Source of the DNA: Mizuhopecten yessoensis
Taxonomy: Eukaryota
DNA length: 64,000 nt
Reading direction: 5' to 3'
NCBI RefSeq assembly: GCF_002113885.1
Contig: NW_018406931.1
Coordinates: 243,253-307,252 of the forward strand
Shown: piece after piece, positions 1 through 51,777 of the stretch
Layout of the letters: the number at the start of each line of letters is the position of its first letter
Numbering within the stretch: position 1 is the stretch's first letter
Position numbers and translations under genes: made by a program
Notes under the pieces: generated by a model
Told to the model about the DNA's origin: nothing
The model's input: only the letters and a program-made list of their open reading frames with translations
Databases searched by the model: none

Positions 1-3000
1 CTTGACAGAGACTTACATGTACACCTACCACACTGAAGACTTGACAGAGACTTACTGGTACACCTACCACACTGAAGGCTTGACAGAGACTTACTGGTAC
101 ACCTACCACACTGAAGGCTTGACAGAGACTTACATGTACACCTTCCACACTGAAGAACTTGAAAGAGACTTACATGTACACCTACCACACTGAAGAACTT
201 GACAGAGACTTATATGTACACCTACCACACTGAAGACTTGACAGAGACCTACTGGTACACCCACCACACTGAAGAACTTGACAGAGACTTACATGTACAC
301 CTACCAGGTTTGACAGGGACTTACCGGTACACCTACCACACTGAAGGCTTGACTGAGACTTACCAGTACACCTACCACACTGAAGGCTTGGCAGGGACTT
401 ACTGGTACACCTACCACACTGAAGAATTGACAGAGACATACTGGTACACCCACCACACTGAAGAACTTGACAGAGACTTACATGTACACCTACCAGGTTT
501 GACAGGGACTTACCGGTACACCTACCACACTGAAGGCTTGACTGAGACTTACCAGTACGCCTACCACACTGAAGGCTTGACAGAGACTTACATGTACACC
601 TTCCACACTGAAGAACTTGAAAGAGACTTACATGTACCCCTACCACACTGAAGAACTTGACAGAGACTTATATGTACCCCTACCACCCTGAAGACTTGAC
701 AGAGACTTACTGGTACAACTGCCACACTGAAGGCTTGACAGAGACTTACATGTACACATTCCACACTGAAGAACTTGAAAGAGACTTACAGGTACACCTA
801 CCACACTGAGGGTTTGACAGAGACTTACCGGTACCCCTACCTCACTGAAGGCTTGACAGAGACTTACTGGTACACCTCCCACACTGAAGGCTTGACAGAG
901 ACTTACATGTACACCTTCCACACTGAAGAACTTGAAAGAGACTTACATGTACCCCTACCACACTGAGGGTTTGACAGAGACTTACTGGTACACCTACCAC
1001 TCTGAAGGCTTGACAGAGACTTACTGGTACACCTATCACACTGAAAACTTGACAGAGACTTACCAGTACAACTACCACACTGAAGATTTTGACAGAGACT
1101 TATATGTACACCTACCACACTGAAGACTTGACAGAGACTTACCAGTACACCTACCACGCTGAAGGCTTGGCAGGGACTTACTGGTACACCTACCACACTG
1201 AAGAATTGACAGAGACATACTGGTACACCCACCACACTGAAGAACTTGACAGAGACTTACATGTACACCTACCAGGTTTGACAGGGACTTACCGGTACAC
1301 CTACCACACTGAAGGCTTGACTGAGACTTACCAGTACACCTACCACACTGAAGCCTTGAGAGAGACTTACCAGTACACCTACCACACTGAAGGCTTGGCA
1401 GGGACTTACTGGTACACCTACCACACTGAAGAATTGACAGAGACATACTGGTACACCCACCACACTGAAGAACTTGACAGAGACTTACATGTACACCTAC
1501 CACACTGAAGGCTTGCGGTACACCTACCTCACTGAAGGCTTGACAGAGACTTACTGGTACACCTCCCACACTGAAGGCTTGACAGAGACTTACATGTACA
1601 CATTCCACACTGAAGAACTTGAAAGAGACTTACATGTACACCTACCACACTGAGGGTTTGACAGAGACTTACCGGTACACCTACCTCACTGAAGGCTTGA
1701 CAGAGACTTAGTGCTACACCTACCACACTGAAGGCTTGACAGAGACTTACTGGTACACCTACAGTACACCTACCACACTGAAGGCTTGACAGAGACTTAC
1801 CGGTACACCTACCTCACTGAAGGCTTGACAGAGACTTACTGGTACACCTACAGTACACCTACCACACTGAAGGCTTGACAGAGACTTAGTGGTACACCTA
1901 CCACACTGAGGGCTTAACAGAGACTTACTGGTACACCTACCACACTGAAGGCTTGACAGATACTTACCGGTACACCTACCACACTAAAAACTTGACAGAG
2001 ACTTAGTGGTACACCTACCACACTGAAGACTTGACAGAGACTTAGTGGTACACCTACCACACTGAAGGCTTGACAGAGACTTACCGGTACACCTACCACA
2101 CTGAAGGCTTGACAGAGACTTACTGGTACCCCTACCACACTGAAGGCTTGACAGAGACTTACATGTACACCTACCACACTGAGGGTTTGACAGAGACTTA
2201 CCGGCACACCTACCACACTGAAGGCTTGACAGAGACTTACTGGTACCCCTACCACACTGAAGGCTTGACAGAGACTTACATGTACACCTACCACACTGAG
2301 GGTTTGACAGAGACTTACCGGCACACCTACCACACTGAAGGCTTGACAGAGACTTACCAGTACACCTACCACACTGAAGGCTTGACAGAGACTTACTGGT
2401 ACACCTACCACACTGAAGATTTTGACAGATACTTATATGTACACCTACCATACTGAAGATTTTGACAGAGACTTATATGTACACCTACCACACTGAAGCC
2501 TTGTCAGAGACTTACTGGTACACCTACCACACTAAAGGCTACCACACTGAAGGCTTGACAGAGACTTACCATTACACCTACCACACTGAGGGCTTGACAG
2601 AGACTTAGTGGTACATCTACCACACTCAAGAACTTGACAGAGACTTACTGGTACGCCTACCACACTGAAGGCTTGACAGAGACTTACTGTTTCACCTACC
2701 ACACTGAAGGCTTGACAGAAACTTACTGGTACACCTACCACACTGAATGCTTGACAGAGACTTACCAGTACACCTACCACACTGAAGGCTTGACCGAGAC
2801 TTACCAGTACACCTACCACACTGAGGGCTTGACAGAGACTTAGTGGTACATCTACCACACTGAAGAACTTGACAGAGACTTACTGGTACACCTACCACAC
2901 TAAAGGCTTGACAGAGACTTACATGTACACCTACCGCACTGAAGAACTTGACAGAGACTTACATGTACACCTACCACACTGAAGGCTTGACAGAGACTTA

Positions 3001-5706
3001 CTGGTACACCTACCACACTGAAGGCTTGACAGAGACTTACTGGTACACCTACCACACTGAAGGCTTGACAGAGACTTACTGGTACACCTACCACACTGAA
3101 GGCTTGACAGAGACTTACTGGTACACCTACCACACTGAAGGCTTGACAGAGACTTACTGGTACACCTACCACACTGAAGGCTTGACAGAGACTTACTGGT
3201 ACACCTACCACACTGAAGGCTTGACAGAGACTTACTGGTACACCTACCACACTGAAGGCTTGACAGAGACTTACTGGTACACCTACCACACTGAAGGCTT
3301 GACAGAGACTTACTGGTACACCTACCACACTGAAGGCTTGACAGAGACTTACTGGTACACCTACCACACTGAAGGCTTGACAGAGACTTACTGGTACACC
3401 TACCACACTGAAGGCTTGACAGAGACTTACTGGTACACCTACCACACTGAAGGCTTGACAGAGACTTACTGGTACACCTACCACACTGAAGGCTTGACAG
3501 AGACTTACTGGTACACCTACCACACTGAAGGCTTGACAGAGACTTACTGGTACACCTACCACACTGAAGGCTTGACAGAGACTTACTGGTACACCTACCA
3601 CACTGAAGGCTTGACAGAGACTTACTGGTACACCTACCACACTGAAGGCTTGACAGAGACTTACTGGTACACCTACCACACTGAAGGCTTGACAGAGACT
3701 TACTGGTACACCTACCACACTGAAGGCTTGACAGAGACTTACTGGTACACCTACCACACTGAAGGCTTGACAGAGACTTACTGGTACACCTACCACACTG
3801 AAGGCTTGACAGAGACTTACTGGTACACCTACCACACTGAAGGCTTGACAGAGACTTACTGGTACACCTACCACACTGAAGGCTTGACAGAGACTTACTG
3901 GTACACCTACCACACTGAAGGCTTGACAGAGACTTACTGGTACACCTACCACACTGAAGGCTTGACAGAGACTTACTGGTACACCTACCACACTGAAGGC
4001 TTGACAGAGACTTACTGGTACACCTACCACACTGAAGGCTTGACAGAGACTTACTGGTACACCTACCACACTGAAGGCTTGACAGAGACTTACTGGTACA
4101 CCTACCACACTGAAGGCTTGACAGAGACTTACTGGTACACCTACCACACTGAAGGCTTGACAGAGACTTACTGGTACACCTACCACACTGAAGGCTTGAC
4201 AGAGACTTACTGGTACACCTACCACACTGAAGGCTTGACAGAGACTTACTGGTACACCTACCACACTGAAGGCTTGACAGAGACTTACTGGTACACCTAC
4301 CACACTGAAGGCTTGACAGAGACTTACTGGTACACCTACCACACTGAAGGCTTGACAGAGACTTACTGGTACACCTACCACACTGAAGGCTTGACAGAGA
4401 CTTACTGGTACACCTACCACACTGAAGGCTTGACAGAGACTTACTGGTACACCTACCACACTGAAGGCTTGACAGAGACTTACTGGTACACCTACCACAC
4501 TGAAGGCTTGACAGAGACTTACTGGTACACCTACCACACTGAAGGCTTGACAGAGACTTACTGGTACACCTACCACACTGAAGGCTTGACAGAGACTTAC
4601 TGGTACACCTACCACACTGAAGGCTTGACAGAGACTTACTGGTACACCTACCACACTGAAGGCTTGACAGAGACTTACTGGTACACCTACCACACTGAAG
4701 GCTTGACAGAGACTTACTGGTACACCTACCACACTGAAGGCTTGACAGAGACTTACTGGTACACCTACCACACTGAAGGCTTGACAGAGACTTACTGGTA
4801 CACCTACCACACTGAAGGCTTGACAGAGACTTACTGGTACACCTACCACACTGAAGGCTTGACAGAGACTTACTGGTACACCTACCACACTGAAGGCTTG
4901 ACAGAGACTTACTGGTACACCTACCACACTGAAGGCTTGACAGAGACTTACTGGTACACCTACCACACTGAAGGCTTGACAGAGACTTACTGGTACACCT
5001 ACCACACTGAAGGCTTGACAGAGACTTACTGGTACACCTACCACACTGAAGGCTTGACAGAGACTTACTGGTACACCTACCACACTGAAGGCTTGACAGA
5101 GACTTACTGGTACACCTACCACACTGAAGGCTTGACAGAGACTTACTGGTACACCTACCACACTGAAGGCTTGACAGAGACTTACTGGTACACCTACCAC
5201 ACTGAAGGCTTGACAGAGACTTACTGGTACACCTACCACACTGAAGGCTTGACAGAGACTTACTGGTACACCTACCACACTGAAGGCTTGACAGAGACTT
5301 ACTGGTACACCTACCACACTGAAGGCTTGACAGAGACTTACTGGTACACCTACCACACTGAAGGCTTGACAGAGACTTACTGGTACACCTACCACACTGA
5401 AGGCTTGACAGAGACTTACTGGTACACCTACCACACTGAAGGCTTGACAGAGACTTACATGTACACCTACCACACTGAAGAACTTGAAAGAGACTTACAT
5501 GTACACCTACCACACTGAAGAACTTGACAGAGACTTACTGGTACACCTACCACACTGAAGGCTAGACAGAGACTTACTGGTACACCTACCACACTGAAGG
5601 CTTGACAGAGACTTACAGGTACACCTACCACACTGAAGGCTTGACAGAGACTTACAGGTACACCTACCACACTGAAGAACTTAATGGAGACTTACCACAT
5701 TGAAGA
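1..5706. repeat. 39-bp minisatellite array (consensus TTGACAGAGACTTACTGGTACACCTACCACACTGAAGGC) in SLC35C1 intron 4; truncated by window edge
   Basis: About 145 tandem units. 63 identical copies lie at 2987-5443, flanked by degenerate units with 40-bp and 32-bp variants. The last partial unit overlaps the exon end at 5696-5706. Confidence 0.98.
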
Positions 5707-5812
5707 CGGTGCTGAGAGAGCGTCCAACATAGTAGAAAGCCACTCCCACATACTTCAGACATAGATTATTGCATGTAATCATTGACACAAAGATAATGGA
5801 CAATGGTAAAAC
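5696..5812 (-). CDS. SLC35C1: GDP-fucose transporter 1, coding exon 4 (gene continues beyond left edge)
   Basis: ttttgcag|...|gtaagt. 117 bp encoding [39 protein letters not shown], the hallmark SLC35C1 segment ([23 protein letters not shown]). Confidence 0.95.
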
Positions 5813-6509
5813 CTGCAAAAATAAATAGATCAGTTCAGCAACAGATATATAACATAATTACATTATAATTCAGAAAAGATACTAAGATGCTGCATGGTAT
5901 TTAAAACATTATTCCTCATTCAAATACTGTTAATATTACAACCAAAAATATATTTTAAGTGTATATTTGTATAGAACATATCTATCTGCTTGCCAACTTT
6001 TTGAAATTCCATGGGGAAATAGCATGTGCTCAGAATTAAAACTATAAATAAAATGTGGTTACCAGGTATGTACACCTCAGGGGAAAATAATACTTTTGAA
6101 TGGCGATTTTTGAGCTGTTCTTTCATATGAAATCATCAGATCTTTGAAAATAGGAATAGTTTACAAATTCACTTGTTGAAAATGCTCAATTTCAGGGTCC
6201 AAAGTGGGGAGTCTCCCTCGATAATAGGGAGATTTGGCAAGTATGTGCTTGTTCTAAGCCTCAGTACGTTCAATGCAAGTTACTGGAAATAATACTTAAA
6301 ATATTTTCAAAACAATCAAATGAGCTTGAAAAAAAATCCAACAAATGGGAAACACACTGGGCCATCTATTGTAACTTAGAATAAATAAAAATGGGCTGTT
6401 CAACAATAATAGTGGCCAATAGCCTCATAGTCCTCTCTTAAATGACCCATGATAATGTGGAATGGTCATATACTTTAACGTTAAATCCTCTAACAACATC
6501 CTAACTTAC

Positions 6510-6650
6510 TGATCTGCTGAGTTTGAGGTCAATCTCCGTGGATGGGAATGAGATCATGGACGGGAAAAATTTGGCCAACACTCGTAGGATTATACACAGA
6601 AGAACGGTCACCACACACTGGTACCATGTCACAAACAAGGGCGCGTTCAG
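6510..6650 (-). CDS. SLC35C1: GDP-fucose transporter 1, coding exon 3
   Basis: tttgtag|...|gtaagt. 141 bp, phase 0, encoding LNAPLFVTWYQCVVTVLLCIILRVLAKFFPSMISFPSTEIDLKLSRS. Confidence 0.93.
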
Positions 6651-7209
6651 CTACAAACAGCATAAGGTCAACATCATTATATTAATCAATATCCTCATTC
6701 ATATTGTCAGTAAGAGTAAAATACAACATTTCATACATTTTTAACTTTACCCTCCTTGTACAAGGCCCAATGAACCTATCAGGCTGTATGTATGTAATAC
6801 ACAAACTCTTTTACATATGAATGACAGAGTATTATATAATAAATACATGTATATCTATACATATATAATTATTATTATAAATTGTTATATTATTATCTAA
6901 CTATTCTTTTTATTACCCTAAAGTCGTATATAAACAGTAGTTTTCTTTGAAAATATGATGTTATTGTTCTATTTTACTGTTGTAGATAATATAAATCCTT
7001 TGTTGTTATTTATCGCTAGGCAGGGCAGTTTTTTTGTACTTGAGGTATCTTTTGAACATTGTAAAATTTGCCGAGACTCCCCATTGTATGTTGTCTGGTC
7101 ATCTCTTCCTTGAACAGTGGGACTGGGTACGTTTTGTAGGAGATCCATTAGTGTAAGACTTAAATATCTGTGTCCAAAAAACCACATCTATTGACATTAC
7201 GTGTATTAC

Positions 7210-7270
7210 CTTGAGTTCAGGGCTGCTGAGGAGGTACTTGTTGGTGAAAACCATTGTAATGGATATCATC
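7210..7270 (-). CDS. SLC35C1: GDP-fucose transporter 1, coding exon 2
   Basis: ttttcag|...|gtaata. 61 bp. Completes the split Trp codon, then encodes MISITMVFTNKYLLSSPELK. Confidence 0.92.
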
Positions 7271-7426
7271 CTGAAAAGAAGAGCAATCTGTCATTAGATA
7301 CGAAAGATTAGACTTTCAAAAATAATACAAAAAAAAAAAAAATATTACTGATACTAAGTTAACACACAGATGTAATTTGTTTTTAAAAGCAAACTATTAA
7401 GATATTTTCGGGGTCTTATTTCTGTA

Positions 7427-7790
7427 CCAAAAGCTTAAGAAGAATCCTGCACATTTTCTGGCCAAACAAAATAACTAATGTAGACCTACTTAGGCAGTGT
7501 AATCAGGAAAGTATGTCTACAATATTAATTAGAAGGCGTTGGAAATGGATTGGACATGTGATAAGAAGAGATAGGAATTCCTTCACCATAACAGCATTGC
7601 ATTGGACTCCAGAAGGGAAGCGCAAGCGTGAAAGACCAACAAATACATGGAGACGTACTGTAGAAGGAGAGATGAAGACCATGAATAACACCTGGGGAAC
7701 AATAGAAAAGATGGCCAAAGACAGACAGAAATGGAGGACCTTTGTTGCTGCCCTACATATGCCAACGGCATAATGGGCAGTAAGCAAGTA
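7427..7790 (+). mobile_element. 5'-truncated RTE-clade LINE fragment
   Basis: Translates to KSLRRILHIFWPNKITN...RRRWKWIGHVIRR...ALHWTPEGKRKRERPTNTWRRTV...WRTFVAAL, a typical RTE ORF C-terminus. Short TAAG/CAAG tail. 9-bp TSD ATTTCTGTA at 7418-7426 and 7791-7799. Confidence 0.88.
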
Positions 7791-8753
7791 ATTTCTGTAT
7801 GTGTTCACTACTGTCATTGCCCTTTCTGTGTTTTGCCAGATGTCATAAATTTAGGGGTAGCAAATATCAACACTTCCTTTATGTCTGCAAGGAGCTCTCC
7901 GGAAATAAGGCAAAAAAAGTCAGTTCACTGTGCAGGATTTTTACTTAAATGCAGGTAGAAAAACACCTTTTTCACCAAGACCTTTTTAATAAATCGGAAC
8001 TAAAAAGTTTTCAATGTGATTTTTGTATGACAAAATTTCTTGTCAATTAATTCTCAATATTATATGACTAGTCACATTGTTGAGTTCGTCTGGCTTCTAC
8101 AAATACCATCCAAAAGCAATAATGTTCTCATGTTTTTTTAACTTCCTAATTTTTCATTCTCTTTAGTAACTGTATCCGGTATAAGTAACACATTTTGTTG
8201 TCATTCAAAATATTGCCGAAATAATTTTGTATACATTTTTTTATCTGTAACTCTGGACCATAGTGGTATCACAGTATTTTATATGTACTGTGTAAGCTAT
8301 AAATAGATTGACAAAAAGTGGGCACACAGTGGAGGAATTTACTTTGTTGTCTTAGTCGTGAAGTGATTGCATTCGACTGAACAGCCAGTCAGGTTAGATT
8401 GAATACTAGCATTGGTGATAAGGATCTTGAACCACTTTTGCTGTTTAATTTTGCTCTATTTTGTCTGTTCTGAATTTAGCCCAAGGGCTCAGAACCAGGT
8501 CACTCATGCTAGATACTGTTGTCATAGATACTGTATTTTTACCTCGCAAACGTTAGCATACTACTTGATAGCTGAATGGGAATAAAAAAAGACAGTGAAG
8601 TAAGTGTTACTTTTGCTGTTAAACTAGCAACAGAGCAAAGTGGATGCATGAAAGGATAAAAATCCGGCCTAAACATCCTCTAAACACTGACAGTGACACG
8701 CTTAGTTAGTTTCATCCGAGTTATGGTATTTCCACGTGGTAATACGACCTTAC

Positions 8754-8842
8754 CAATATGATGCAACAACGCCCGCAATTTTTGAATACTTTGAAAATAA
8801 CGACTCCATTCTTGGATGTCTGTGATAAATCGTTACAGTCAT
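8754..8842 (-). CDS. SLC35C1: GDP-fucose transporter 1, coding exon 1
   Basis: ATG at 8842, directly after an in-frame TAA (alternative ATG at 8809). Encodes MTVTIYHRHPRMESLFSKYSKIAGVVASY-TG|gtaagg, and the phase matches exon 2. Confidence 0.87.
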
Positions 8843-9200
8843 TTAAAATAACAGTGTTCCCCCTTTGCCTTCCTTGATCTTGCCACGAAGTCGACACAGA
8901 AATCAGGATCAAACATGTGCTTTGTTTACAAGTTGACCTCGTGCCAGATAAGCGCTCTCCTGACGTTGATTCGGGTGTAACTAACTGCACCATATTCACT
9001 TTGGGCATGAGACGGGAAGTGGAGTTATACAGAGATAATAAGCCGATCAACTAATTGGACTCACATCATTTTTCAATCCTCCCTTCTTTTATTGCCTGGT
9101 CTTTTAACGTTAGTAATATTTGAAATCAACATCAAAATATGGAGCACTAAATATCTTAAAATTAACTGGGTAATGAGAGAGAAGGGGGGATGTTCAACAA
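8843..9200. promoter_or_regulatory. Putative shared (bidirectional) promoter of SLC35C1 and TAZ
   Basis: CpG-richer stretch between divergent genes, with an ETS-like CGGGAAGT (~9013) and a CRE half-site TGACGT (8961). The first TAZ coding exon is preceded by a splice acceptor, so an upstream non-coding exon is needed. Confidence 0.4.
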
Positions 9201-9389
9201 CCTTTCTGGTTCAAAAGAACGTATAACCTAGATACATATATATATGATAAGCCATTATGCATATGTGGTTATCTTATGATGTTATCTGGACATTCGTATC
9301 TATATGTGTGACTTTGGTTTATCCACAGGGGCACGCAACTTGCCTATTGGCATTGATCTTGTTAGACTTTCATTTGCTGGGTACGTTAT

Positions 9390-9843
9390 CAGGTCCAGTA
9401 CACTCTGCCGATTGAGCGGCCCCGATTGAGCTATATAGCTGTAAAGACATATAATAGCTCTATTGACCTATCTGAAATAGGTCTTTTGGGCTATTTTCAA
9501 ATGATTTTCTTTTTTAAAGAAAACTTAACAATGTCGCTTTTAAAAGAAGATTGTATCATTAGGTTGATAACAAAAGACATTAAATATAAGTATTCTTTTT
9601 AAAAAATAATGATGTAAAAAAAATCGGAAATTTTACATTTATGAAAAATAGAAATAAACATCTAACTGTATGCTCTTTGTAGTCAACATTACCATAAACC
9701 TTATTGTTTTATGCGACTTTGCTTTAATTTAATGAAATTTGAATTCTGAGAAAATATAGCTCAATACAGCTATAATTTATAGGTGTATATAGCGATAAAG
9801 GTCTTTATAGCTATATAGATCACGGCAGAGTGTCCTGGACCTG
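9390..9843. mobile_element. Non-autonomous DNA transposon (MITE) with 21-bp TIRs and 5-bp TSD
   Basis: TIR CAGGTCCAG(T/G)ACACTCTGCCG with 1 mismatch, subterminal inverted CTATATAGCT motifs, and GTTAT duplicated at 9385-9389 and 9844-9848. Confidence 0.85.
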
Positions 9844-9999
9844 GTTATAACATGCCCAGCGACTGAATAGTCTAACAAGATCAATATTGATACTAGTGGC
9901 GTGGCCTTGAGCCCCATGAAAGACAACGATAACAAATATATAAACAATATATATAAAACATGTAACAAACTCACATTATATACGAACACACATAATACT

Positions 10000-10425
10000 A
10001 TGTGTGCAATGATTACAGCAGATACAGTAGTATATCCAAAATGATGGAGAAACTTAAATGGCAACCGCTATCAGAACGCAGACAAGACCAGCGTTTAGTA
10101 TTACTCCACAAAATAGTTCACGGCCTCATGGCCATACCCGCTGACCCGCTATTCCAGTTAAATACCAGACCATCTAGAACACAGCACAGTAAATCCATCA
10201 AAGTGCTTTAAGTTGTAACACCGACATATATAAGAACTCATTTGTACCATCTACCATAAAAGACTGGAATGTGCTACCATCGCACATAATAATCAACTGT
10301 AAAACAACGGACAATTTAAGGCCACTGTTGTGACCAAAATTGACTAAGATTGATACAGCGCACTCTCTCACCCTGGATAAACTTTGCTCAGTAGTGAGCT
10401 AATTTCCAGTAAATAAACAGATACT
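10000..10425 (+). mobile_element. Degenerate 3' end of a non-LTR retrotransposon (CR1/RTE-X-like)
   Basis: NDYSRYSSISKMMEKLKWQPLSERR...LHKIVHGL, then after a frameshift YKNSFVPSTIKDWNVLP (S-F-x-P-x-T-I-x-D-W-N-x-L-P LINE C-terminal motif). Confidence 0.75.
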
Positions 10426-10502
10426 AGACAAGCATTTCGTATGTTCGTTTATACAGTCTATTTGTATAGCAGAAATGATCGACTGGGTCTATTATTGTCT
10501 GT

Positions 10503-10575
10503 GGTCGGGCAGTTCAATTGGTACAACATCCGTCTAGAGTTTGAGAGGTCCTGAGTTTGAATCCTGGTCTAGCCA
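10503..10575 (+). mobile_element. tRNA-derived SINE head (degenerate)
   Basis: A-box/B-box-like tRNA-shaped sequence, with related diverged copies at ~11940-12003 (-), 21688-21757 (+) and ~39710-39776 (-). Confidence 0.6.
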
Positions 10576-11402
10576 TTAATTGCATTTGTTAGAAGCCCCA
10601 GTGCTGAAAGATGGTATACTATGATGCACCAAGCATGCTGCATTTAAATAAATTGATTTAATCTTTATGTTATTTCTTTACAATTATTTTATTTGTTTAA
10701 ACCCCAAAACAATTAATGAAAATATATTCATTTTTGTATTGCCATTTCAAAATCATATTGCTAGACAAATATTACAACATTCATTGCTTATTAGTACATG
10801 TACTGCAATAATATTACCCACCCCTATGAGATAACCTATTATCTAAAGTGTATATACCTAGGTAATGCAGAGCTCTTTTACTGTAGCTGTTGAGAGGCAT
10901 ATACTGACCTTAAATCAAGAAACATGTTGCGATGCGAAACCACTGAAATTGTATTCAAATTCCATGGTAATATATTTTAGCAGATTATAAATAAGAAAAC
11001 AATGCTTAACCCTAGATTGATAAATGAACTTTAGATGATGTGCCATTTTGAACACATTTTTGATGTTATATATTATATTCTCTAGACATGTTATGAATAT
11101 TGAAACTGAAAAGTGTTATAATGGTATAACCTGTCGTAAGCTTTTTTATAACATTAATGTCACAAAACGACACTTCATATGTATTCATAACAGTCAAAAG
11201 TCCATTTTTCTGGTAAAGTATGTTACACAGGCATTTTATTATGATTTTTGTGCATTGCCATAGCAATCATCTTGCTTTGAGGCAGTATGCCTCTCCACTA
11301 TAGCATCTTTAGTGGCTTGTTGATTAAGCCAGTGTATACCTACCAATAATATAGTGTATTAAAGAAAATATCTTTGACATTTTTAAGGTGACAATTAAAA
11401 AG

Positions 11403-11514
11403 ATGCCCCTGGAACCACATATGTGGCAGTTCCCAAAGAAGCTAGACACAGTTTGGAGAATCAAGAGCCGAGTGACAATATCATCTGTTGGTCTTATTAG
11501 CAAGCTTGTCGTCG
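11403..11514 (+). CDS. TAZ: Tafazzin, coding exon 1 (complete CDS 789 bp, 262 aa over 8 exons)
   Basis: MPLEPHMWQFPKKLDTVWRIKSRVTISSVGLISKLVV-G|gtaagt resembles the TAZ N-terminus MPLHVKWPFP. Acceptor ttttaag| at 11387. Confidence 0.9.
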
Positions 11515-11939
11515 GTAAGTATTGCTTTCCTTGATGTTTCAAAGATCACCTATCTACATGATTATTTGAAACACAGACTGAGCTCATTAAGTAAACTCAG
11601 ATTCAGGAAGTTTGGTTGCTGAAAGACAGTTTAATATGGAACCTTGCTCATTTGGATATGCACAGTATTTCATTATAAACATATGTTTTTTAATGACTAT
11701 CTCTGTAACAAGAAAGTGAAAATACATTGGGGCCAGACCCTGCAACCTCTTGATAGACAATTTAATCAATTGAGCTACCTGGTATACGTAGCGAACATCA
11801 CCTGGCCCAGTCCAATAACACACCTCTCTCCTTTTTCTTCTCCCTTTTTTCTTACAAACCAAGTGTGGGTACCCTCTTACCAAGGGTACCCTCAAAACTT
11901 GAAACAAGGCTTGGTCATAGGTACCACAATAATGGAGAG

Positions 11940-12003
11940 TATTCAAACACGGTACCTCCGAACGCTAGATGGACATGCACTCTAACCAATTGAGCTACCT
12001 GGC
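11940..12003 (-). mobile_element. tRNA-derived SINE head (degenerate; partial second copy ~11730-11783)
   Basis: Reverse complement begins CCAGGTAGCTCAATTGG, the same as the copy at 21688. Confidence 0.55.
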
Positions 12004-12532
12004 AGTCAGCCTGCTCTGTCCTGCTACATCTAAGTACATACCCAATCCATGAACATTTATTGAGGAGGAAAAGTGATTGTGTGCACACTGCAAAGGTGCT
12101 ATGTCAGCCAGGGACACAAATCACAAAGGGACATGCACCTTATTGGTGATTTTAGTACCTTTTGAAAAAGGACCTTTGCCACAGACCATAGTTATGGTCA
12201 AAACACAATCAAAGTATTTGTCAATGTATTTAATACAAAACTTTGAAATAATTTGTATGTGGTGAAAATGGGGCATTAATGATGTTTAGAGTTTGTAGTG
12301 TCATTTTGTATTTGTATGTATATTTTTTCAATTTGTGTGATGTATGATAATTTTGGAAAATTGATAACTTATACTATATTCTCTGTTTACTGAGTTTAAT
12401 GACGGTCTTGTTTAGCAAGTTTCAAATTAAGAAATTGGTTCTTTATAGCTAGGGTGAAAATACTATATTCTAGTGTTGTTTGAGATATAACCATTTTATT
12501 GTGGTGTAATGTGTAATTTTCCTTGTTTTCAG

Positions 12533-12658
12533 GATTTAATAATTTTAAGGTTGTGAACAAGCAAACTTTGATAAAGAATATTCAGTCAACTGGAAACGGT
12601 CGTGGACTCATAACAGTAACTAACCACCATAGCTGCCTGGACGACCCAACTTTGTGGG
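12533..12658 (+). CDS. TAZ: Tafazzin, coding exon 2 (catalytic HxxxxD motif)
   Basis: ttttcag|...|gtaaga. Encodes FNNFKVVNKQTLIKNIQSTGNGRGLITVTNHHSCLDDPTLW. Confidence 0.96.
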
Positions 12659-41184: not shown

Positions 41185-42578
41185 GTACCGTCAATATCAT
41201 AACAGTAGCGTTGTTTTTTCGGTACTTTATAGCCTATTAGCCGTAAAGATAATCCAGGATGTAAGATAGACAGTCCAGCTGAGCGTGTCTACTGGTGCCC
41301 TAGATTTAATTGATTATAGAATGGTGTCAACTGCATGTGTCTAGATTTAAAGAAATTTATAAATATGTATTTAATAATCTGTGTTAGCGATACAGATAAT
41401 TCAGATACAAAGACGCGAAAGGGAGAAGTTTGTTTTAAATACAGATGTTCCTTAATTTTAATGGAAACTTAAGAGTTAATCAAATATTGCAATTGTTTAC
41501 TGGTAATGAATTGCATGAAAAAATATAATGACATCATATAGGATATTTCACTATTAAAGCATACCACATACTACATTACAGTTGTACAAGCAACATTTGT
41601 GAATTGTGTCATTTTACTAATTCACATCATAAAAAACATTAAAAATGGAAACATTGTGTCTGATCTGCAAAGGGTGCAGTTTTATTTGATGATATATTAA
41701 TTATAACCATAAACAAAATGTACAATATTACAAAAGAATGAGAGACAGCCACTGCCTATATCAGTCATATTCATGATGTCCATGATAATAAAAATATCAT
41801 AATTAAGTAACATACACTTTCTTAATTATGTAATCCTATCTTAGATAGTATAAATATAATAGTGTTCAAAACATAAATCTTGGCCATGCTTCCTGTTTTT
41901 CCAAGATTCATAATGGTACAATTCTAAAAGGGAAACTTCATATATTATGAAATGAAATTGGATCAGGTTTCCTGGGTCTAATCCTACTTAAAATATATAT
42001 ATACCCTTCATGTACATGTAAATCATTCTCTTGATCGAGTTAAAAGTCTACTTAAGACAGGCTCCTTGTAAGGAGATACAATTCATTATATGCTTATAAC
42101 ATCCAGGTAGATACCTGACTATTTCAAGTGAAACATCTGCATTTAAAAGTTACAGCAATGAACAGATTTGTCAAACTCCATAATTAAAGAAAGTGTACAA
42201 AGTATCTACCGGGGTATTAACTTTTATTCTTGGTTGTTTGTGTTCAACACTTCATTTTGATAAAGTACAGTTCAGGAAAAGTGTTAACTGCTCTTCAATA
42301 GGCACAAAACCTAACAATTTTATTAGTTTTAGAAAGTATATTTAATGAATATTCCAAGTGTGCATTCTTTCCGGTGTGCATTTGATTTATCATTTATAAA
42401 TAGGTACATGTATACTATTATAATAAATCAAATCCTTACACATCATGATCATTTAACCAAATATTTGAATGTCTTTTTTTTTGGTATATTTTCAGATTGC
42501 CTGATGAAGACTTCTCCAGTTCTGACAAGTCACGGTATGGGATAACACATCTCCTCAAATAAACATGAATTTACAAGA

Positions 42579-45537
42579 ATGAGGACGTACAAGGAGCCCA
42601 AGCGGATTGATAAGCCCCGTGCCCGGGAGCCAGGAATTGTCAATCCTGACTATGTTAACCGCATTGCAGCAAGTTATCACCAGAAAAATAATGTTATTCC
42701 AGATGGAAGCAGCAATAATGAGACGGACCCCTCGGGGACAAATCATCACTGTGACAATATCAACAGTTCAAAGGACAGTGAAGAGGGAACCTCCTGCACT
42801 ATCCAGGAGGAGGAGGAGATAACTCCGGAAAATGAGGCTGAAGATGCAGAGATTGTGCACTGCAATGATGCAGGCAAATTCAAAGATCTCGACAATGGCC
42901 TTGAACAGGAGGTCAATCCCTTGAGTGATGAGGAGGCTTGTCACAACGAAAGGGAGATGGAAAGAGAGGAAAAAGCTGTGCTATCTCCACTATCACCTCC
43001 TGACTGTAGGCCTGACGTAGTGGACCAAGAATTGAACAGTGAAATTATAAGTGAAAAAACTGATATACCAGCTGTTAGCCCTCAGATGAATAGCAATAAT
43101 AGCACTACAAAAAAGAAAAAGGCAACCAAACAAAAACCGAAGCCAAGTGAAAAGTCTGACACAAAGAAGTCTGTGAAGACAAAACCCACAACAAACAAAA
43201 AGAAAACATCAGCAAAACCGTCAAAGTCTAAAGATGCAATTCACAAAGAGTTAAATGGCACCAAAGAACACAAAGATGATACTGATGTAATGGACCCTGT
43301 CTTGTTGAATCAGGATCCTTCCCCACCTAAGAAAAAGAAATCCAATAATAAATCACTGCCTTCCAAAAAATCTCAGAAAAAGTTACTAAAATCAAAGAAA
43401 GAAGTAGCTAATGAAAACGATGTAGAAGAACTGCATAATATCACTGATAAGGATGACCTGGACACTTCTAGTAAGTCTGATGCATCCTCTCCAAGGGTTT
43501 CAAAACGTACACCAAAGAGAAACAGAAAGTATCATAGTGAGGAGGAAACTGAATGGCCAGTAAAGGAGGACTCGGAGCCTGGAAAAAAGAAGGATGCTGT
43601 AGGAAAACCACCAGCCGGGAAAAAGCCTCCCATCAGAAAGAGAAAGCTTCTATTTGAGGATGATGACATTGATGAGGAGGAGGAGGAGGAGGAGGGGGAG
43701 GTTGCTGTGGCAGCACCTAAAGATGTAATAGTTAAAAAACCAGTGAATAAAAAACGTAAAAAAATAGAAGACAAAGCAGCGACAGAAACAAAAGCAGAAA
43801 CAGTTACAGAAACTGCAACTGAAAGTACAGTTGTGGAAGGAACTGGGGAGGCAAAACCAGAAACTGTCCAGAAAAAAGCGAAAAAAGCAAGAAAGAAACC
43901 TGCTGCTAAGAAACCAAAGACAGCAGTTAATGAAAATATTCCTCCAACAGATACTCTTACAGATGGAGGAAAGAATGTAGGTAATGATTTAGGTAGAACA
44001 AGTCAAGAGGACAAAGTTGTTGCCCCCGATCACGACTGTAATGAACTGAAAGGTACAGAGGACAATGAGACCACGGACACTAAATCAAAACCTACTGTCT
44101 GTAAAAAAGTAGAGACATCTGACATCAAAAAGAAAAAGAAAACTGTCAAAAAGCGGAAAGTTACACCACCATCAGAAGAAGTGAATAAGAACACTTCTGC
44201 AACAGAGGAAGTGGGTAGTAGTTCTTTAGTTAACAAGGCAAGTGGGGAAACATGTGATAAACCGTTAGAAGTGAAACCGTTAGAAGTGAAAAAGAAAACA
44301 ACTAAAAAGAAAAAGAGCATAGTTCAAAATAAGGAAAGTACAAATGATGAAAAGAAGGAGCTTGTTGTGAAGGAGGAAACTTCAGAAAAAGAAGGAGATG
44401 CTGCCAAAGAAGTGAAAGAGGAAAACATGGAGTCAAAAGGGACAGAAGGTTCACCTCAAAAACCAATTATTCCAGTTGTAAAGAGGCCTCCAGTGGTGAT
44501 CACCTGTCAGCACTGTGGTCACATATCACACAGCAAGGGGGCCAACACACGGCACCTGCGTAAATGTGTGGTCAGTATTCTCAAGGGGGAGGGGCCTATG
44601 TCCCCTACCCGGGCCAGCTCCAGCGGAATGGAGTCAGAGATTAAAACCGAGGGATCTGCTGAAAATGGGGAGGACACCCAGGATGTGAAAACCACTATTT
44701 TATTACAAAACCAGGAGATAAAAAAGATAGAAACAGGCACGGCCGGGGAGGCCCAGTATAGGTGTCAGCACTGTACGTATGCAACACCAAAACGGGCCAT
44801 GTTAGCTCGCCACATGAGGACTCATGGTATTTATGTGTGTTTGCGATGCACATTCATTTCTGACACTCATGATAGCCTCAAGGACCATTGTCACAGGGAG
44901 CACAAGGACAGAACAGACTTTAAGTTATGTCGAAAGTGTAGTCGTTATGTCAAATGTACTGAAATACCCTTGGAGAAACACATGGAGGAATGCTTAGGGC
45001 CAGTCCCTTTCATTTGTCATCACTGCAGCAAAGAATTCAAATATGAATCATCTCTCAAATCCCATATCATACGCCATAATCCAGATGCACCAAAACGCTT
45101 CCATTGTGAAAAGTGCAGCTACGAATCGAACTACAAAGCCAACCTTAAAAAGCATATGGCTAATATCCATGGGGAAAAGGTGAAGCATGTGCGTTGTGTG
45201 CATCCAGATTGTGAGAAAATGTTTTACACTGAAGACAGTATGCGAAGACATTTAAAATGGCATTCAGAGGAACGACCTTTCAAGTGCCCAAATTGTGACA
45301 AACGATTCAAAACGAACACTGCCCTACGGGGTCATAAGGTGATACATGACCCTTCTCGCCCATTTAAGTGCAATATCAATGATTGTACAAAGGATTTCCG
45401 ATCCAAGAAACATTTAAAAAATCATCAAGAAGAATTCCATCAAATTGCTGACAAGAAATTTCTGTGTAATCAGGAATCATGTACATTTGCATTCTTCAAA
45501 AGAAGCCACTTAGAACGCCATCTCATCACACACACTG
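42579..45537 (+). CDS. Large C2H2 zinc-finger protein, coding exon 1 (total ~2258 aa, 12 fingers)
   Basis: Lys/Glu-rich disordered N-terminus, then 10 fingers (8 C2H2, 2 C2HC). Donor CACACTG|GTTTGT splits the HTGER linker. Acceptor tttcag| at 42496. Confidence 0.92.
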
Positions 45538-46608
45538 GTTTGTATTTATGAAAATGGTTAATGGTGTGAATATTTGCATTATATTTTCCTTTGATAGAGG
45601 TCAGAGAGGATATTGTAATCATGCTCTGACATCCATCTGTGCATCTGTAGTATTTGGGAAAGGTGTGGCTTAACACAATAAAATTCAATGGATTCATTAC
45701 ATAAACTCCTGATACTGTACCATTGCATTTTATAAGGCCAAAACTACCCCGACTGACACTAGTTTTTACCTCTGACCCCAACAGCTTTATCTCACTTGAA
45801 CACTCTCCATATGCATCCAGTGTTGGGATAACTTGTCAACCAGATGCAAATAAATTTATGGACAAACAAACAAGGCAACTATATCCTCTCTGCTTCATAG
45901 GCAGGTATTAAACCAAATTTAAATCCCATATTATTATTCAAGAGACCTAAAAATATGTTTTGTGATTTTTCTTATTTCTTATTACCCAAAAGGATTTAAA
46001 TTTGCGAAAAAGTCGAATGATATACATGTCTAGGTCAATTCAGAATTGGGCAACTTGTTATAGTATATTATTATACCAAATTGTATAGGAAACAATATTA
46101 ATGCAAATAAACAACCAAGTGACATGATTACCCAAATAAATGAGTCCAGACAATATACAAAATAACAATGCTAGTTGGTTGAATTATACAGGGGAAGTGC
46201 ATGTACATCTTTCATGCACAACATGACTTTTACAAAATGTGATATCAGCTGTAATATTAGAAGTTATATGATAGGTTTCAGTGTCTTTGCCTGACATATT
46301 ATATATTATATAAGTGGGAGTAAAATCAAGCATCATTAACCATTTATTCTTACCCCTTTATATGGCTTGCCTTGAGCTCTAACATTTTGAGGGCCAAAAG
46401 CCATTTTAGGAGGTCATATACCCCATATGAGGGTGAAAGGAAATCCCAAGTTCAGCTGGTTGATTAAAATATTTAAACCATGAATAGGAACATGAATGTA
46501 CAAGATATGTACCTATGTGGTATGATGTACTCTACAAGTACATTTGATTTCATATATACATATGTATTGCAATATTTTTAAAGGAACATTGGTATTACAT
46601 ATATACTA

Positions 46609-47352: not shown

Positions 47353-47959
47353 TACTGAGGATGCGGGGGCCCTAGCTCTGCTCCATTATATCTTCATATC
47401 TGGGAGATTGAGGATAGTATTACAATACATTATGTATATAATTTAAATACAACAATGATACATGAACCTCCTTTCCTGTTATTCATATATAATTATATAG
47501 CTTTCACACCTGTTACCCTTGTAACACCAAATGATAACCATGTATTTCATTTGTTGCACTTAATTAACACCAATGATAAACTCACCTTTCTTTCTTGAAC
47601 CTTAACCTAAAACCAGTGATTACTCAGCATAAAATTTAAACCAATGATGTCCCAGTCCGTTTGCCCCTCCTCCTCCCCTTCAACACTCATGGTCACTAAA
47701 ATTAAACTGTACACAGCGTACAAATATTATGTAAGAGTGAATGAGTTAACAAGTTGTTATGTAAGGAGAAGAAAATATGATTTAACCCATTCACCCCTAA
47801 AGTACATTCGAACCTTGCCAAATCAAAAACTTAAAGTCTAGTTTAAACATGTAGGGGTGAATGAGATAAGAACCATAAATACTTCTATATATATTTGTTT
47901 ATGGTCTGTGTGTTATTTCATACAGAGATATTTAATAATCTTTTTCTTATACATTTCAG

Positions 47960-50900
47960 GTGAACGGAAGTTTGGTTGTCGTATCTGTGGCAGAGCTTTT
48001 CGACATGCGGACAATTTGAAAATACATATGAGGCAACACACAAATGAGAAACCAGTGAAATGTGACTTATGTGATTTTGCATGTCGGCAGAAAAGCTCAC
48101 TACAGTATCACCTGCGCAAGTTCCACAATATCATCCCTCCCTCCAAGGAAGCCTCCCATCATGTGGTGGCCATTGATGGAGTTCGAAAGCCAGCATCTGC
48201 CTCGGTCGGCAGTGCTAATGGTAAGGACAGCAATGGCACCCTACTACAAGATAAGAAGCCTCTGTCTCCTGTCAATAGATCTCAGAACCCAATGGACTTG
48301 TATGAGTTTAAGTCGGATGATGAAATGGACAGTGATGCATTGTTACCACTGTTCCAGGACAAGTCTCTAAAGTCTTTTAGAGTCAACCATGTTGAAAAGA
48401 TGGAGAATGAGAAACCAGCTGTGATGGAAAATAAAGATCTTGCCCAAGTAAGTGCACTTGACCTGCCTACAGGCCAAGAGGGTGTTGACCTGCCAACAAG
48501 CCAAGAGAGTGTTGACCTACCAACAGGTGAGGAGAGCGTGAAGGACGAACAACCAAAACCTGAGGTAGCAAAGAAAAAAGTTGTTAGAAAGAAAAAGAAA
48601 CCAAAGGTTGTAAAACAGGAGGTGAAGGAAGAGGAGATGAAATCAAATGAAGAAGAACACAATCTAAATGTGAAAGAAGACCATGAGGAAGTTGGGTCTT
48701 CGAATGGTTTAGTTACCAGTCCCTCTAATATCATTGGTGAGGATGTGTCTGAGGTTGTGACTGAGATAGTGAAAGCTAAACCAAAGGGAAAGGGCAAAGG
48801 TAAGGGCAAGAAGAAGGCCACTCCAAAGGGCACATCACCAAAGGCAGCTTCACCTAAAGGCACCTCACCTAAAGGCACCTCACCTAAAGGCGTCTCACCG
48901 AAGGCAGCCTCTCCTAAAGGCAGTTTGCCTAAATCAGCTTCTCCAAAATCAGTAACACCTAAATCTTCAACACCCAAAGCATCAACACCTAAATCAAGTT
49001 CACCCAAATCCAATCTGCCTAAAGCAGCAATATCAAAAGCAGCTGCATCCAAAGCTGCAAAGGAAAAAAAGGCACCAATCAAAAAGGGTCGCAAAGTAAA
49101 GGCAGAAATAGAGGAGGAGCTGCTAGCTAAAACAATAGCAAAACAAGCACCAAAACGATCTCCCAGGACAAAAGCTGTCACATCAAAAAAGAGTCCTGGT
49201 GGCAGGAAAAAGCCAAAGGCCAAGAAAAAGAAAAAGGAGCCTGTTGTGGCAGAGGATCTGGATGAAACTGATGAGTATCGAGAGGATGATGATGATGAAG
49301 AGGTAAAGGAGAAAGTTACTTTGGATCTGCCTAGTAAAGATCAAACTGTAGAAGAAAGTGTGGATGAAGCCAATTTGAAAGCTACAGCTTTTGTTGATGT
49401 GATTAAATATGTGGAGGAACATAGTGCTGGTAACTTGTCAGAGCCCGATAAACCGGAACAACCTCCACAGGAAGTTGTGGAGGATTCACTTCCTGTTGTT
49501 GAGGATTTACTTCCTGTTGTTGAGGATTTCCTTCCTGTTGTTGAGGATTTCCTTCCTGTTGTTGAGGATTCTGCTGAGAAGGATATAGAAGATAATGGTG
49601 ATGAGATGATACCAGAAGAGAAGAAATTAAAGGAGGATGAAGAGACGGTGGTAGCTGAGCCAGTTACAGATCCTGTTGTCACTGTAGCTGAACCTCTCCC
49701 TGAGGTGCCAAGTAAAGTGGATGAGGAGAGTGACAGGATGAGTAGTAGTATAGACACTGACTTTGAGGAGGAGCTAAAACCTCCCCCAGCCCCTCGCCCC
49801 CCTCCTGTGATAGACAGTGATGAGGCGGACATAGAGTCGGGGCCAGAGGACATTGACACACCTGGGAGGGACTTTGAGTCTACACCACCAAAGTCTGTGG
49901 CCAATAGTGAGAACATCCACAGTGTGCAGAGTCATTCCGGGGGAGAGCCACGTCTGGACAGTGACTTGGGAGACAGTATGTCCCAATCTTACAGGCGCTC
50001 AGAGTCACAACCTGACAGTGGGTCAGAAATCAAGCGGGACCAAGATCCTCTTGATGCTTTGGCAGTCAGCATAAACAAGACTGAGGCTAATGATCTCCCC
50101 AAACAGACACCAATTGCAGATGGGGTAGCCACTCCTGTTGTTGCTGGTCCTGCCAATGCAGATTTTGGGGGCTCACAATCTGAGTCTACAATGCCAGAGG
50201 TTGACAAGGAATACCTGGGTCAGTACCTTCAGCAGTTTGACTCCACTGCACGCTCTGAGGACGAAGTATCTCGTCTAGACAGACTTGACACAACAGCTGA
50301 AAGATCCATAGACATTCCCTCTACTCCCCAGGACAAGGAGTTACCTCCCCTTAACCTAAGTGCATCTGCACCTCCTCTAAATCTAACAACAACTCCGGAG
50401 ATTCCACCTGAGGAGATCCAGCCTCAGCCTGTACAGGGCACAGACATGTCCAACAAACGCATGGAGATCCTGGAGTGTGATAGGCAGCACGAGAACCACT
50501 ACCAACCCAGCCGCAGTGTGAGCCCACTGCGCCCTTCAGAAAGGATCCCTGACAATGTGTACGACAGCCTAAATGCTATCACATCGTACATCCCAACCCC
50601 AACCCCCACCCCCACCCCTACTACCAGGGAACCCCCAGTCATTAGACAGACTGAGAATATATTTCCTCCTGTGACTGCTAGCACATCTTCTACCACAACC
50701 TCCTCCTCATCCTTCATGCGCTTCACAGAGAATGATGCTTTACTACAACGTCAGAGGATGACGACTCCTTTCCTTACCCAAAGTGATCCAAACGCATTAC
50801 AAAACCTTCATCGTATGGCTGACTCTGCCCTTGCATCACATTCTAACTCTGCTTCCTCATTGTTGCGACGACCTACGACTGTGCCGCCACGAGAGGACAT

Positions 50901-51777
50901 GTTTCCAGGCCCCACAGCAGTAACGGCCCAGACCATGGCCAGGAATCCATTTAACTCATGGACAGGTGTGACAGGGCAAGAGGTAAGACCTGCTCACTGG
51001 TCCCAAACACCATACCTTCAGCGGGACCGCCCCGCAAACTCCACATCCTCCCCACTATTCTCCAAGGACAACTACCTCAGTGGGCGGGAGTTCATGTTTG
51101 ATCCCTCACGACGAAGTGTTGCAGAGAGAAATATGTTCCCTGGATTAACTCAATCTACAACTCGCCCAGAATTACCGCATGAAACTTTTCCCATGGAGAG
51201 ATTTGATTTCGGTTATTTTGGAAGTCATGGTTACCCAACTGCACCCTCTCTACAAGAATATACAAGAACACAGTGTGGCACATCCCAAAAAACATTAGAG
51301 GAGCGGTATCGTCAGTCGGCCTCAGGAATCACTGACTTTTCACGTGCTTTTCCTCCAACATCAACGTCGGAAATGTTCAGTAGCATGAATATGAACACCT
51401 CATTTAACCTGGACAAGTACATGTACAATCGTGAGCCCATCTATCATCCTCAACATATGGGGGACAGCACCAATAGCCCGTTCCTTCCCCATGGGGTGGC
51501 CCCCCAACATACCATGTTTGACCGTGAATACCCCCCGCGTGGATTCTACCAAAACAGTCCCTATAGCTTTGTGAACTCTATGAACGATAAGCAATATGCT
51601 GCTGCTGCAGCTGCATCAGCGAAACTTACACATCCTACTGGGTCAGGGGTGACACAAGAACGGGACTTTGTGCCTCGTCCGAATACTGGGGCTGCGGCAG
51701 CCCCAGACAACCAGATTCAGGACCCCTATAGGAATCCCCTGCTGTACAATATGATGAATCGCTACACTTTCGAATGA
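47960..51777 (+). CDS. Large C2H2 zinc-finger protein, coding exon 2
   Basis: atttcag|GT completes the Gly of TGER. Two further fingers follow (the last, CDFACRQKSSLQYH, resembles the ZFP91/ZNF653-type CGFTCRQKASLNWH), then (S/T)PK repeats, an acidic region and a Pro/Ser/Phe/Tyr-rich tail. TGA at 51775-51777. Confidence 0.92.

Follow-up and report, generated by a model that had tools for sequence, protein, structure and literature searches.

A junction-spanning minisatellite of at least 145 copies beside a 5′ splice site in the GDP-fucose transporter gene of a scallop

How is a 5′ splice site chosen when the intron behind it opens with several kilobases of copies of that same exon-intron junction, and how might such an array come about? 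The locus that raises this question lies in the genome of the scallop Mizuhopecten yessoensis, in a stretch of 64,000 nt (contig NW_018406931.1, positions 243,253 to 307,252) that we call the window. We analyzed the structure of the array, the joins made around it in assembled transcripts, and the occurrence of similar arrays elsewhere in the genome.

An array built from the exon-4 junction

Alignment to scallop orthologues by tblastn placed four coding exons of the host gene inside the window and two beyond it, six in total (Table 1). The last exon is 83 to 84% identical to GDP-fucose transporter 1 of Ylistrum, Pecten, and Argopecten, and the Pfam families TPT and EamA match it weakly. The exon-4 junction, which is backed by orthologues and by contigs, reads TCTTCAATGTG|GTAAGTCTCCATTAAG on the minus strand, with intron position +1 at 5695. 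Intron 4 is 14,390 nt long in the assembly, and its array is followed at the far end by ~510 nt of unique intron sequence, after which comes exon 5.

Table 1. Positions of the transporter gene exons and of the array features in the window
Feature	Position	Strand	Basis or remark
GDP-fucose transporter 1 (SLC35C1-like) coding exon 1	8754..8842	-	tblastn to scallop orthologues; boundary by sequence reading
Coding exon 2	7210..7270	-	tblastn; splice-site scores
Coding exon 3	6510..6650	-	tblastn; boundaries by sequence reading
Coding exon 4 (VLPLSIIF...STVFNV), last 11 nt copied in array	5696..5812	-	translation, tblastn, RNA-like contigs joining its end to exon 5
Authentic exon-4 5′ splice site, GTG|GTAAGT	5690..5698	-	
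28-nt junction copy (exon end + intron +1..+17), the array boundary unit; in-frame TAA at 5683-5681	5679..5706	-	
39-nt junction minisatellite	1..5677	-	goes on past the window after the gap
Run of identical units	2986..5442	-	
Variant-rich distal part, repeated blocks of variant units	1..2985	-	holds the decoy donors outscoring the authentic one

Tandem Repeats Finder called 145.0 copies of a 39-nt period in the array, which adjoins the exon-4 donor and whose boundary unit overlaps the real junction. The consensus unit is identical to the junction at 9 of 11 exon-end bases and 13 of 16 intron-start bases, and its frame (FSVVGVPVSLCQA) is open. Its donor-like sites include 113 of the form GTG|GTAGGT and 85 of the form CCA|GTAAGT, plus variants. 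These results bear out the first-pass annotation, which had described about 145 units next to the true donor, each made of exon end and intron start, open in frame and carrying two donor-like sites. The copy number is a minimum, since a gap of 7,876 N sits at the window start and a further 7.8 units lie beyond it (G000:C3604, about 235,070 to 235,376); the array would have about 350 units if the whole gap is repeat.

Could the size of the array instead be largely a product of assembly, with a shorter array over-extended by gap filling? The assembly is split into 82,659 contigs, a 7.9-kb gap falls within the array, and 63 units in a row (2,457 nt) are identical, a run that may reflect either recent homogenization or assembly fill. 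However, 60 distinct unit types are present among 144 units, and the variant-rich distal half has structured variant blocks over about 3 kb. Matching units are found on the far side of the gap, and the transcripts agree with the exon order and joins. We consider a largely artefactual size very unlikely.

The array appears to have been born locally, by tandem duplication across the junction. This reading is supported because all 67 exact matches to the 39-mer that the 988-Mb genome contains fall here, as do 99 among the 100 matches listed for an 18-mer with one mismatch (150 matches, versus 11 for a reversed control). The first-pass annotation had likewise proposed such a duplication, and origin from a dispersed satellite is ruled out by these single-locus matches.

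Part of the unit had previously been read as a 12-nt insert. This segment is present, but it is itself junction-like: 9 of its 12 positions agree with intron +1..+11 when the two are aligned (shuffle P = 0.001), and among 1,358 12-mers from the local introns only one does equally well. On the route that we propose, a 28-nt piece across the exon-4 junction would first have been duplicated. The two donors per unit may then have arisen by duplication of intron +1..+11 inside this piece (28 + 11 = 39) or, equally possibly, the first copy may have lost 12 nt later. The 39-nt unit would finally have been amplified and homogenized, with both boundary copies left out.

The array shows the marks of concerted evolution with its boundary units excluded, namely, the 63-unit run and a CTCCAT state at both array ends, restricted to the first (junction) copy and the far terminal copy, which lies outside the window. 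The string CATTAA, which creates a TAA at +13..+15 of the intron, had been assigned to the exon-proximal copy only. It does occur just once in the window's array, but the far terminal copy also carries CTCCAT. A special meaning of the +15 stop is unneeded: the CCAT state also survives at the far array end, and AT-rich introns would commonly hold a stop in their first few codons.

Decoy sites and the joins in assembled transcripts

The array presents about 280 donor-like sites in 5.7 kb, matching the U1 consensus at 6 to 8 of 9 positions. On a donor matrix set by hand from animal splice-site frequencies, the score of the authentic donor is 10.2 and those of the nearest decoys are 8.2 and 7.4, while 19 distal decoys (CCG|GTAAGT and CTG|GTAAGT) score above the authentic donor. 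Concealment of the decoys by RNA structure was ruled out, the fold over 5480 to 5760 of the minus strand being not unusual (z = +0.91), and the mechanism requires no special fold. The same gene carries a mirror-image acceptor array that takes up most of the 1,307-nt intron 5. Its 65-nt unit combines ~43 nt from the end of intron 5 with ~22 nt from the start of exon 6, and its 12 decoy acceptors score 8.5 to 10.8, versus 12.3 for the authentic acceptor. Other arrays in the window, a tafazzin 31-mer (13667-14811), a 49-mer (18142-18306), and a 3′ 30-mer (19294-19933), were rejected as junction copies, as they do not overlap placeable exon ends.

The gene's last exon is present in 20 sequencing runs from 13 studies; 14 of these runs are guessed to be RNA, and none is on record as RNA. 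We compared four of the 20, from four studies, with the repeat-free stretch around exon 5. In all four, a single contig of 1.4 to 2.9 kb lies over exon 5 and runs on to the authentic end of exon 4 in one direction and to the authentic start of exon 6 in the other, and the exon-4 end in the contigs has the AAT codon form rather than the AGT form of the repeat. No array-derived join was present in any of the four contig sets, which report the dominant form only, as contigs drop rare variants. Within the stretch compared, no RNA-like contig covers intron-4 or intron-5 sequence. In its dominant form, normal splicing takes the exon-proximal site. Exon definition would produce this outcome by fixing the end of exon 4 at the first donor and the start of exon 6 at the last acceptor, and rare use of a decoy donor would put the +15 stop in the message, leading to clearance by nonsense-mediated decay (NMD).

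The first-pass annotation had suggested that the array might serve as a U1 snRNP sink, the nascent array binding U1 in amounts that would affect the gene or the whole cell. U1 has a role in long introns, and each pre-mRNA would offer hundreds of donor-like sites. A single-copy gene, however, has few nascent transcripts, whereas the U1 pool is very large, and the introns are not covered by the RNA-like contigs in the stretch compared. Published work on a human gene also argues against a sink: in the 37-bp variable-number tandem repeat (VNTR) of F7 intron 7 (Borensztajn et al.), the pseudo-donors are described as functional yet without competing against the first site, and the most upstream one wins (PMC1557585). 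We regard such a trans-acting role as extremely improbable.

Junction arrays elsewhere in the genome

For an unbiased sample, we took 80 tiles (759 kb without N), picked regardless of repeats, and collected arrays with a period of 15 to 150 and at least 3 copies. The 149 arrays found make up 16.5% of the bases. Five of them lie on a junction as judged by score, unit homology, and inspection (3.4%; 95% interval, 1.1 to 7.7%): two on donors (L137 and L121, the latter with Pfam Pro_dh) and three on acceptors (L103, L117 with Peptidase_M10, and L104 with Hist_deacetyl). A sixth candidate, L139, was excluded because of its retroelement-like frame. Genome-wide, we estimate roughly 2,000 to 14,000 junction arrays. 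Such arrays at other exon-intron boundaries, a prospect raised in the first-pass annotation, are thus plainly numerous in unrelated genes, and nothing marks out the GDP-fucose transporter gene.

At the five sampled junction arrays, the authentic site does not clearly outscore its copies; we therefore dropped the idea that the authentic site is always the strongest, which was true of both focal arrays. The sample gave no excess of arrays at junctions, with 6 of 506 edge tests positive versus 4 to 11 of 464 to 500 shifted tests at score 20, and 8 of 253 edges versus 4 to 7 of 232 to 249 shifted ones at score 18. Windows shifted into the flanks yield equally many exon calls, and there is therefore no excess over chance placement in the sample.

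Donor words were also counted across the genome. Three copies of the strong donor word AGGTAAGT at a spacing of 23 to 52 nt had 5,703 matches, whereas three control words of identical composition had 831, 1,649, and 1,475; per single site, this corresponds to 10.6% for the donor word and to 2.2, 6.0, and 3.3% for the controls (1.8 to 4.7 times), the counts being of units, so that long arrays weigh heavily. The word AGGTGAGT gave 2,428 matches versus 989 for its control (raw counts, not normalized). The acceptor word TTTNCAGG was not enriched in tandem (2.82% versus 2.72%). Among the matches listed, contigs C1 to C170 contain 12 donor arrays, versus 1 and 3 for two controls.

An exon-like segment stands at the start of 24 of 39 evaluable donor-word arrays and of 1 of 15 evaluable control arrays, a comparison that is unmatched for donor strength and that we did not use as an enrichment test. 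(Of 43 donor-word arrays taken, 4 were unevaluable because of a gap or contig end; 5 of the 20 controls were dropped.) Pfam matches at E values up to 0.05 were obtained for 8 of 20 scannable candidates (TMEM164, Lig_chan-Glu_bd, PAN_1, Vps26, AAA_lid_3, WD40, RNA_pol_Rpb2_1, and UreF). Inspection of 18 acceptor-word arrays showed a clear exon at the end of 3 and identified 1 as a donor array; one of these four has a Pfam match (CFAP300).

The fair control for a donor bias is the single AGGTAAGT site outside arrays. Against this control, the exon-like heuristic passes 22 to 23 of 39 arrays versus 9 of 27 single sites, a borderline difference (odds ratio, 2.6 to 2.9; P = 0.05 to 0.08) that gives P values of 0.1 to 0.2 at stricter cutoffs. 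Nondonor words pass the same heuristic at 17 to 20 of 68, and the heuristic is therefore noisy. It is possible, though on these figures doubtful, that real 5′ (not 3′) splice sites are favored places for the birth or retention of minisatellites, giving thousands of donor arrays genome-wide; any such bias could also reflect more arrays in introns generally.

Known junction repeats and the likely nature of the scallop array

The arrangement is of a kind already known from amphioxus and from human VNTRs (F7, CBS, 6-16, and ABCA7), and the scallop array is a very large further case. The amphioxus "mirages" (Ebner et al.), found in Adh3, the globins BflGb6 and BflGb9, and troponin C, are described in the available sections of that paper as tandem repeats of exon boundaries, 5′ or 3′, that leave splicing unaffected and whose boundary units are spared by concerted evolution (PMC3087553); the excerpted account of PGBD5 adds another (PMC3902484). 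As far as these sections go, the two systems share an invertebrate host, minisatellite-like repetition of an exon-intron boundary at 5′ or 3′ ends, unhomogenized boundary units, and undisturbed splicing. They differ in size, with 2 to 7 units in the globins and PGBD5 and at least 145 in the scallop, which in addition is a mollusc and has donor and acceptor arrays in one gene and two donor-like sites per unit.

The human cases, again as given in the available parts of the papers, also resemble the scallop array. In F7, too, the first unit spans the exon-intron boundary and pseudo-donors follow downstream, and only the most upstream site is used; F7 has 5 to 9 units with identical sites, whereas the scallop has hundreds of decoys unlike the authentic site. 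6-16 (IFI6), CBS, LMNB2, and PDGF are cited as further cases (PMC1557585). The 25-bp VNTR of ABCA7 intron 18 (up to ~427 units, 10.7 kb) likewise starts at the donor and is of similar size, but its unit begins at GT and lacks exon bases, unlike the scallop unit. It is associated with length-dependent exon skipping and expression, and a cryptic donor one unit downstream causes a frameshift (PMC5954066). The excerpt of a human catalogue of splicing-linked repeats does not address junction copies (PMC10078293). In the literature searched, which covered few subscription journals and so gives a weak negative, we found no mollusc or genome-wide survey of junction arrays.

The ABCA7 precedent suggests that the scallop array might act in cis on splicing or expression, with longer alleles giving stop-containing decoy joins or exon-5 skipping and hence less transporter. 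All of the ~280 donor-like sites lie behind the +15 TAA, about 2% one-unit retention accompanies the length-linked skipping in ABCA7, and, according to work cited in PMC1557585, 6-16 and CBS make use of the two pseudo-sites that come next. However, the ABCA7 unit-retention isoform is reported, in the portion available, not to track length (PMC5954066). In the scallop, moreover, the four contig sets held no array-derived join among dominant forms, and the gene is not set apart among thousands of such arrays. We consider a cis-acting VNTR unlikely.

In our view, this is a junction-spanning minisatellite, or mirage, of at least 145 tandem copies. Its probable source is local slippage with unequal exchange, and it is probably neutral, the spliceosome taking the site nearest the exon. 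We regard it as a likely by-product that this very repeat-rich genome tolerates. Neutrality had been allowed for in the first-pass annotation, and the authentic joins and the many similar arrays favor it; together with published first-donor use, they give no support to the U1-sink or NMD-tuning role proposed there. Against the neutral reading stand the loss of rare isoforms from contigs whose runs are only guessed to be RNA, the 19 distal decoys that outscore the authentic donor, the length-linked splicing change at the similarly sized ABCA7 VNTR, the absence of a clearly stronger authentic site at the five sampled junction arrays, and the genome-wide enrichment of the donor word, which is not predicted by pure random birth of arrays.

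In this one gene, the dominant form of splicing remains accurate despite the nearby decoys, hundreds of them donors and a dozen acceptors. If a single mollusc genome has a rough total of 2,000 to 14,000 junction arrays, mirages would be an ordinary outcome of minisatellite turnover. Abundant mirages would be a hazard for gene annotation and for assembly, with gaps falling within the arrays, and would supply material for intron gain, which has reportedly been described as occurring by duplication. A donor-only bias would be new if it survives an annotated genome-wide test. If true, it would tie the birth or survival of minisatellites to U1 recognition, for example, if intron expansions that bring their own U1 sites are better tolerated, and it would offer thousands of natural loci at which to study first-site selection and intron gain by duplication.

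A second array in the transporter gene

The GDP-fucose transporter gene carries a second junction array besides the one next to its exon-4 donor. Its 65-nt unit combines a branch-point-like TTTTAAT, a pyrimidine tract and TTACAG with the ~22 nt that open the last exon. The last acceptor is the one used at this array in the dominant form represented by RNA-like contigs. More minisatellites, with units of 51, 65 and 41 nt, lie close 3' of the transporter stop codon (L012:5432-6441 and 8709-8983, in a separately fetched stretch).

Neighboring genes

From its motifs, we take the divergent neighbor to be a tafazzin-like gene; one of its exons matched Pfam Acyltransferase (E 0.003). Coding repeats were seen at window positions 48458-49570, inside the second C2H2 zinc-finger exon.

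Features in the window and elsewhere in the scallop genome (G000; C, its contigs; L, stretches fetched from it)
Feature	Location	Strand
Second transporter junction array	L056:1620-2800 (G000:C3604 about 233,120-234,300)	minus
Presumed tafazzin-like gene, divergent relative to transporter	window 12533-19209	plus
31-nt array, filling one of its introns	window 13667-14811	
30-nt array, 3' of its stop	window 19294-19933	
B-box protein, single exon	window 27859-29625	plus
C2H2 zinc-finger-type very long exon, first of two	window 42546-45548	plus
C2H2 zinc-finger-type very long exon, second of two	window 47842-51774	plus
Junction array found among control arrays	L205:3372-3494	minus
Multi-kilobase donor-word array	L044 (G000:C123 1,617,300-1,621,500)	
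Multi-kilobase donor-word array	L054 (G000:C123 209,500-211,250)	
Multi-kilobase donor-word array, 50-mer matched by donor word	G000:C42 245,900-290,900	
Donor array, 54-nt unit, 39 copies	L070:2993-5099 (G000:C134 about 314,000-316,100)	

Arrays elsewhere in the genome

One "control" array (L205) proved to be a junction array itself, and the exon at it matched Pfam Glyco_hydro_63. About 200 units were present in one of the multi-kilobase donor-word arrays; the C42 50-mer occurred at two sites, 40 kb apart. The L070 unit holds a donor word together with an acceptor-like word, and each unit therefore resembles a tiny exon plus a tiny intron.
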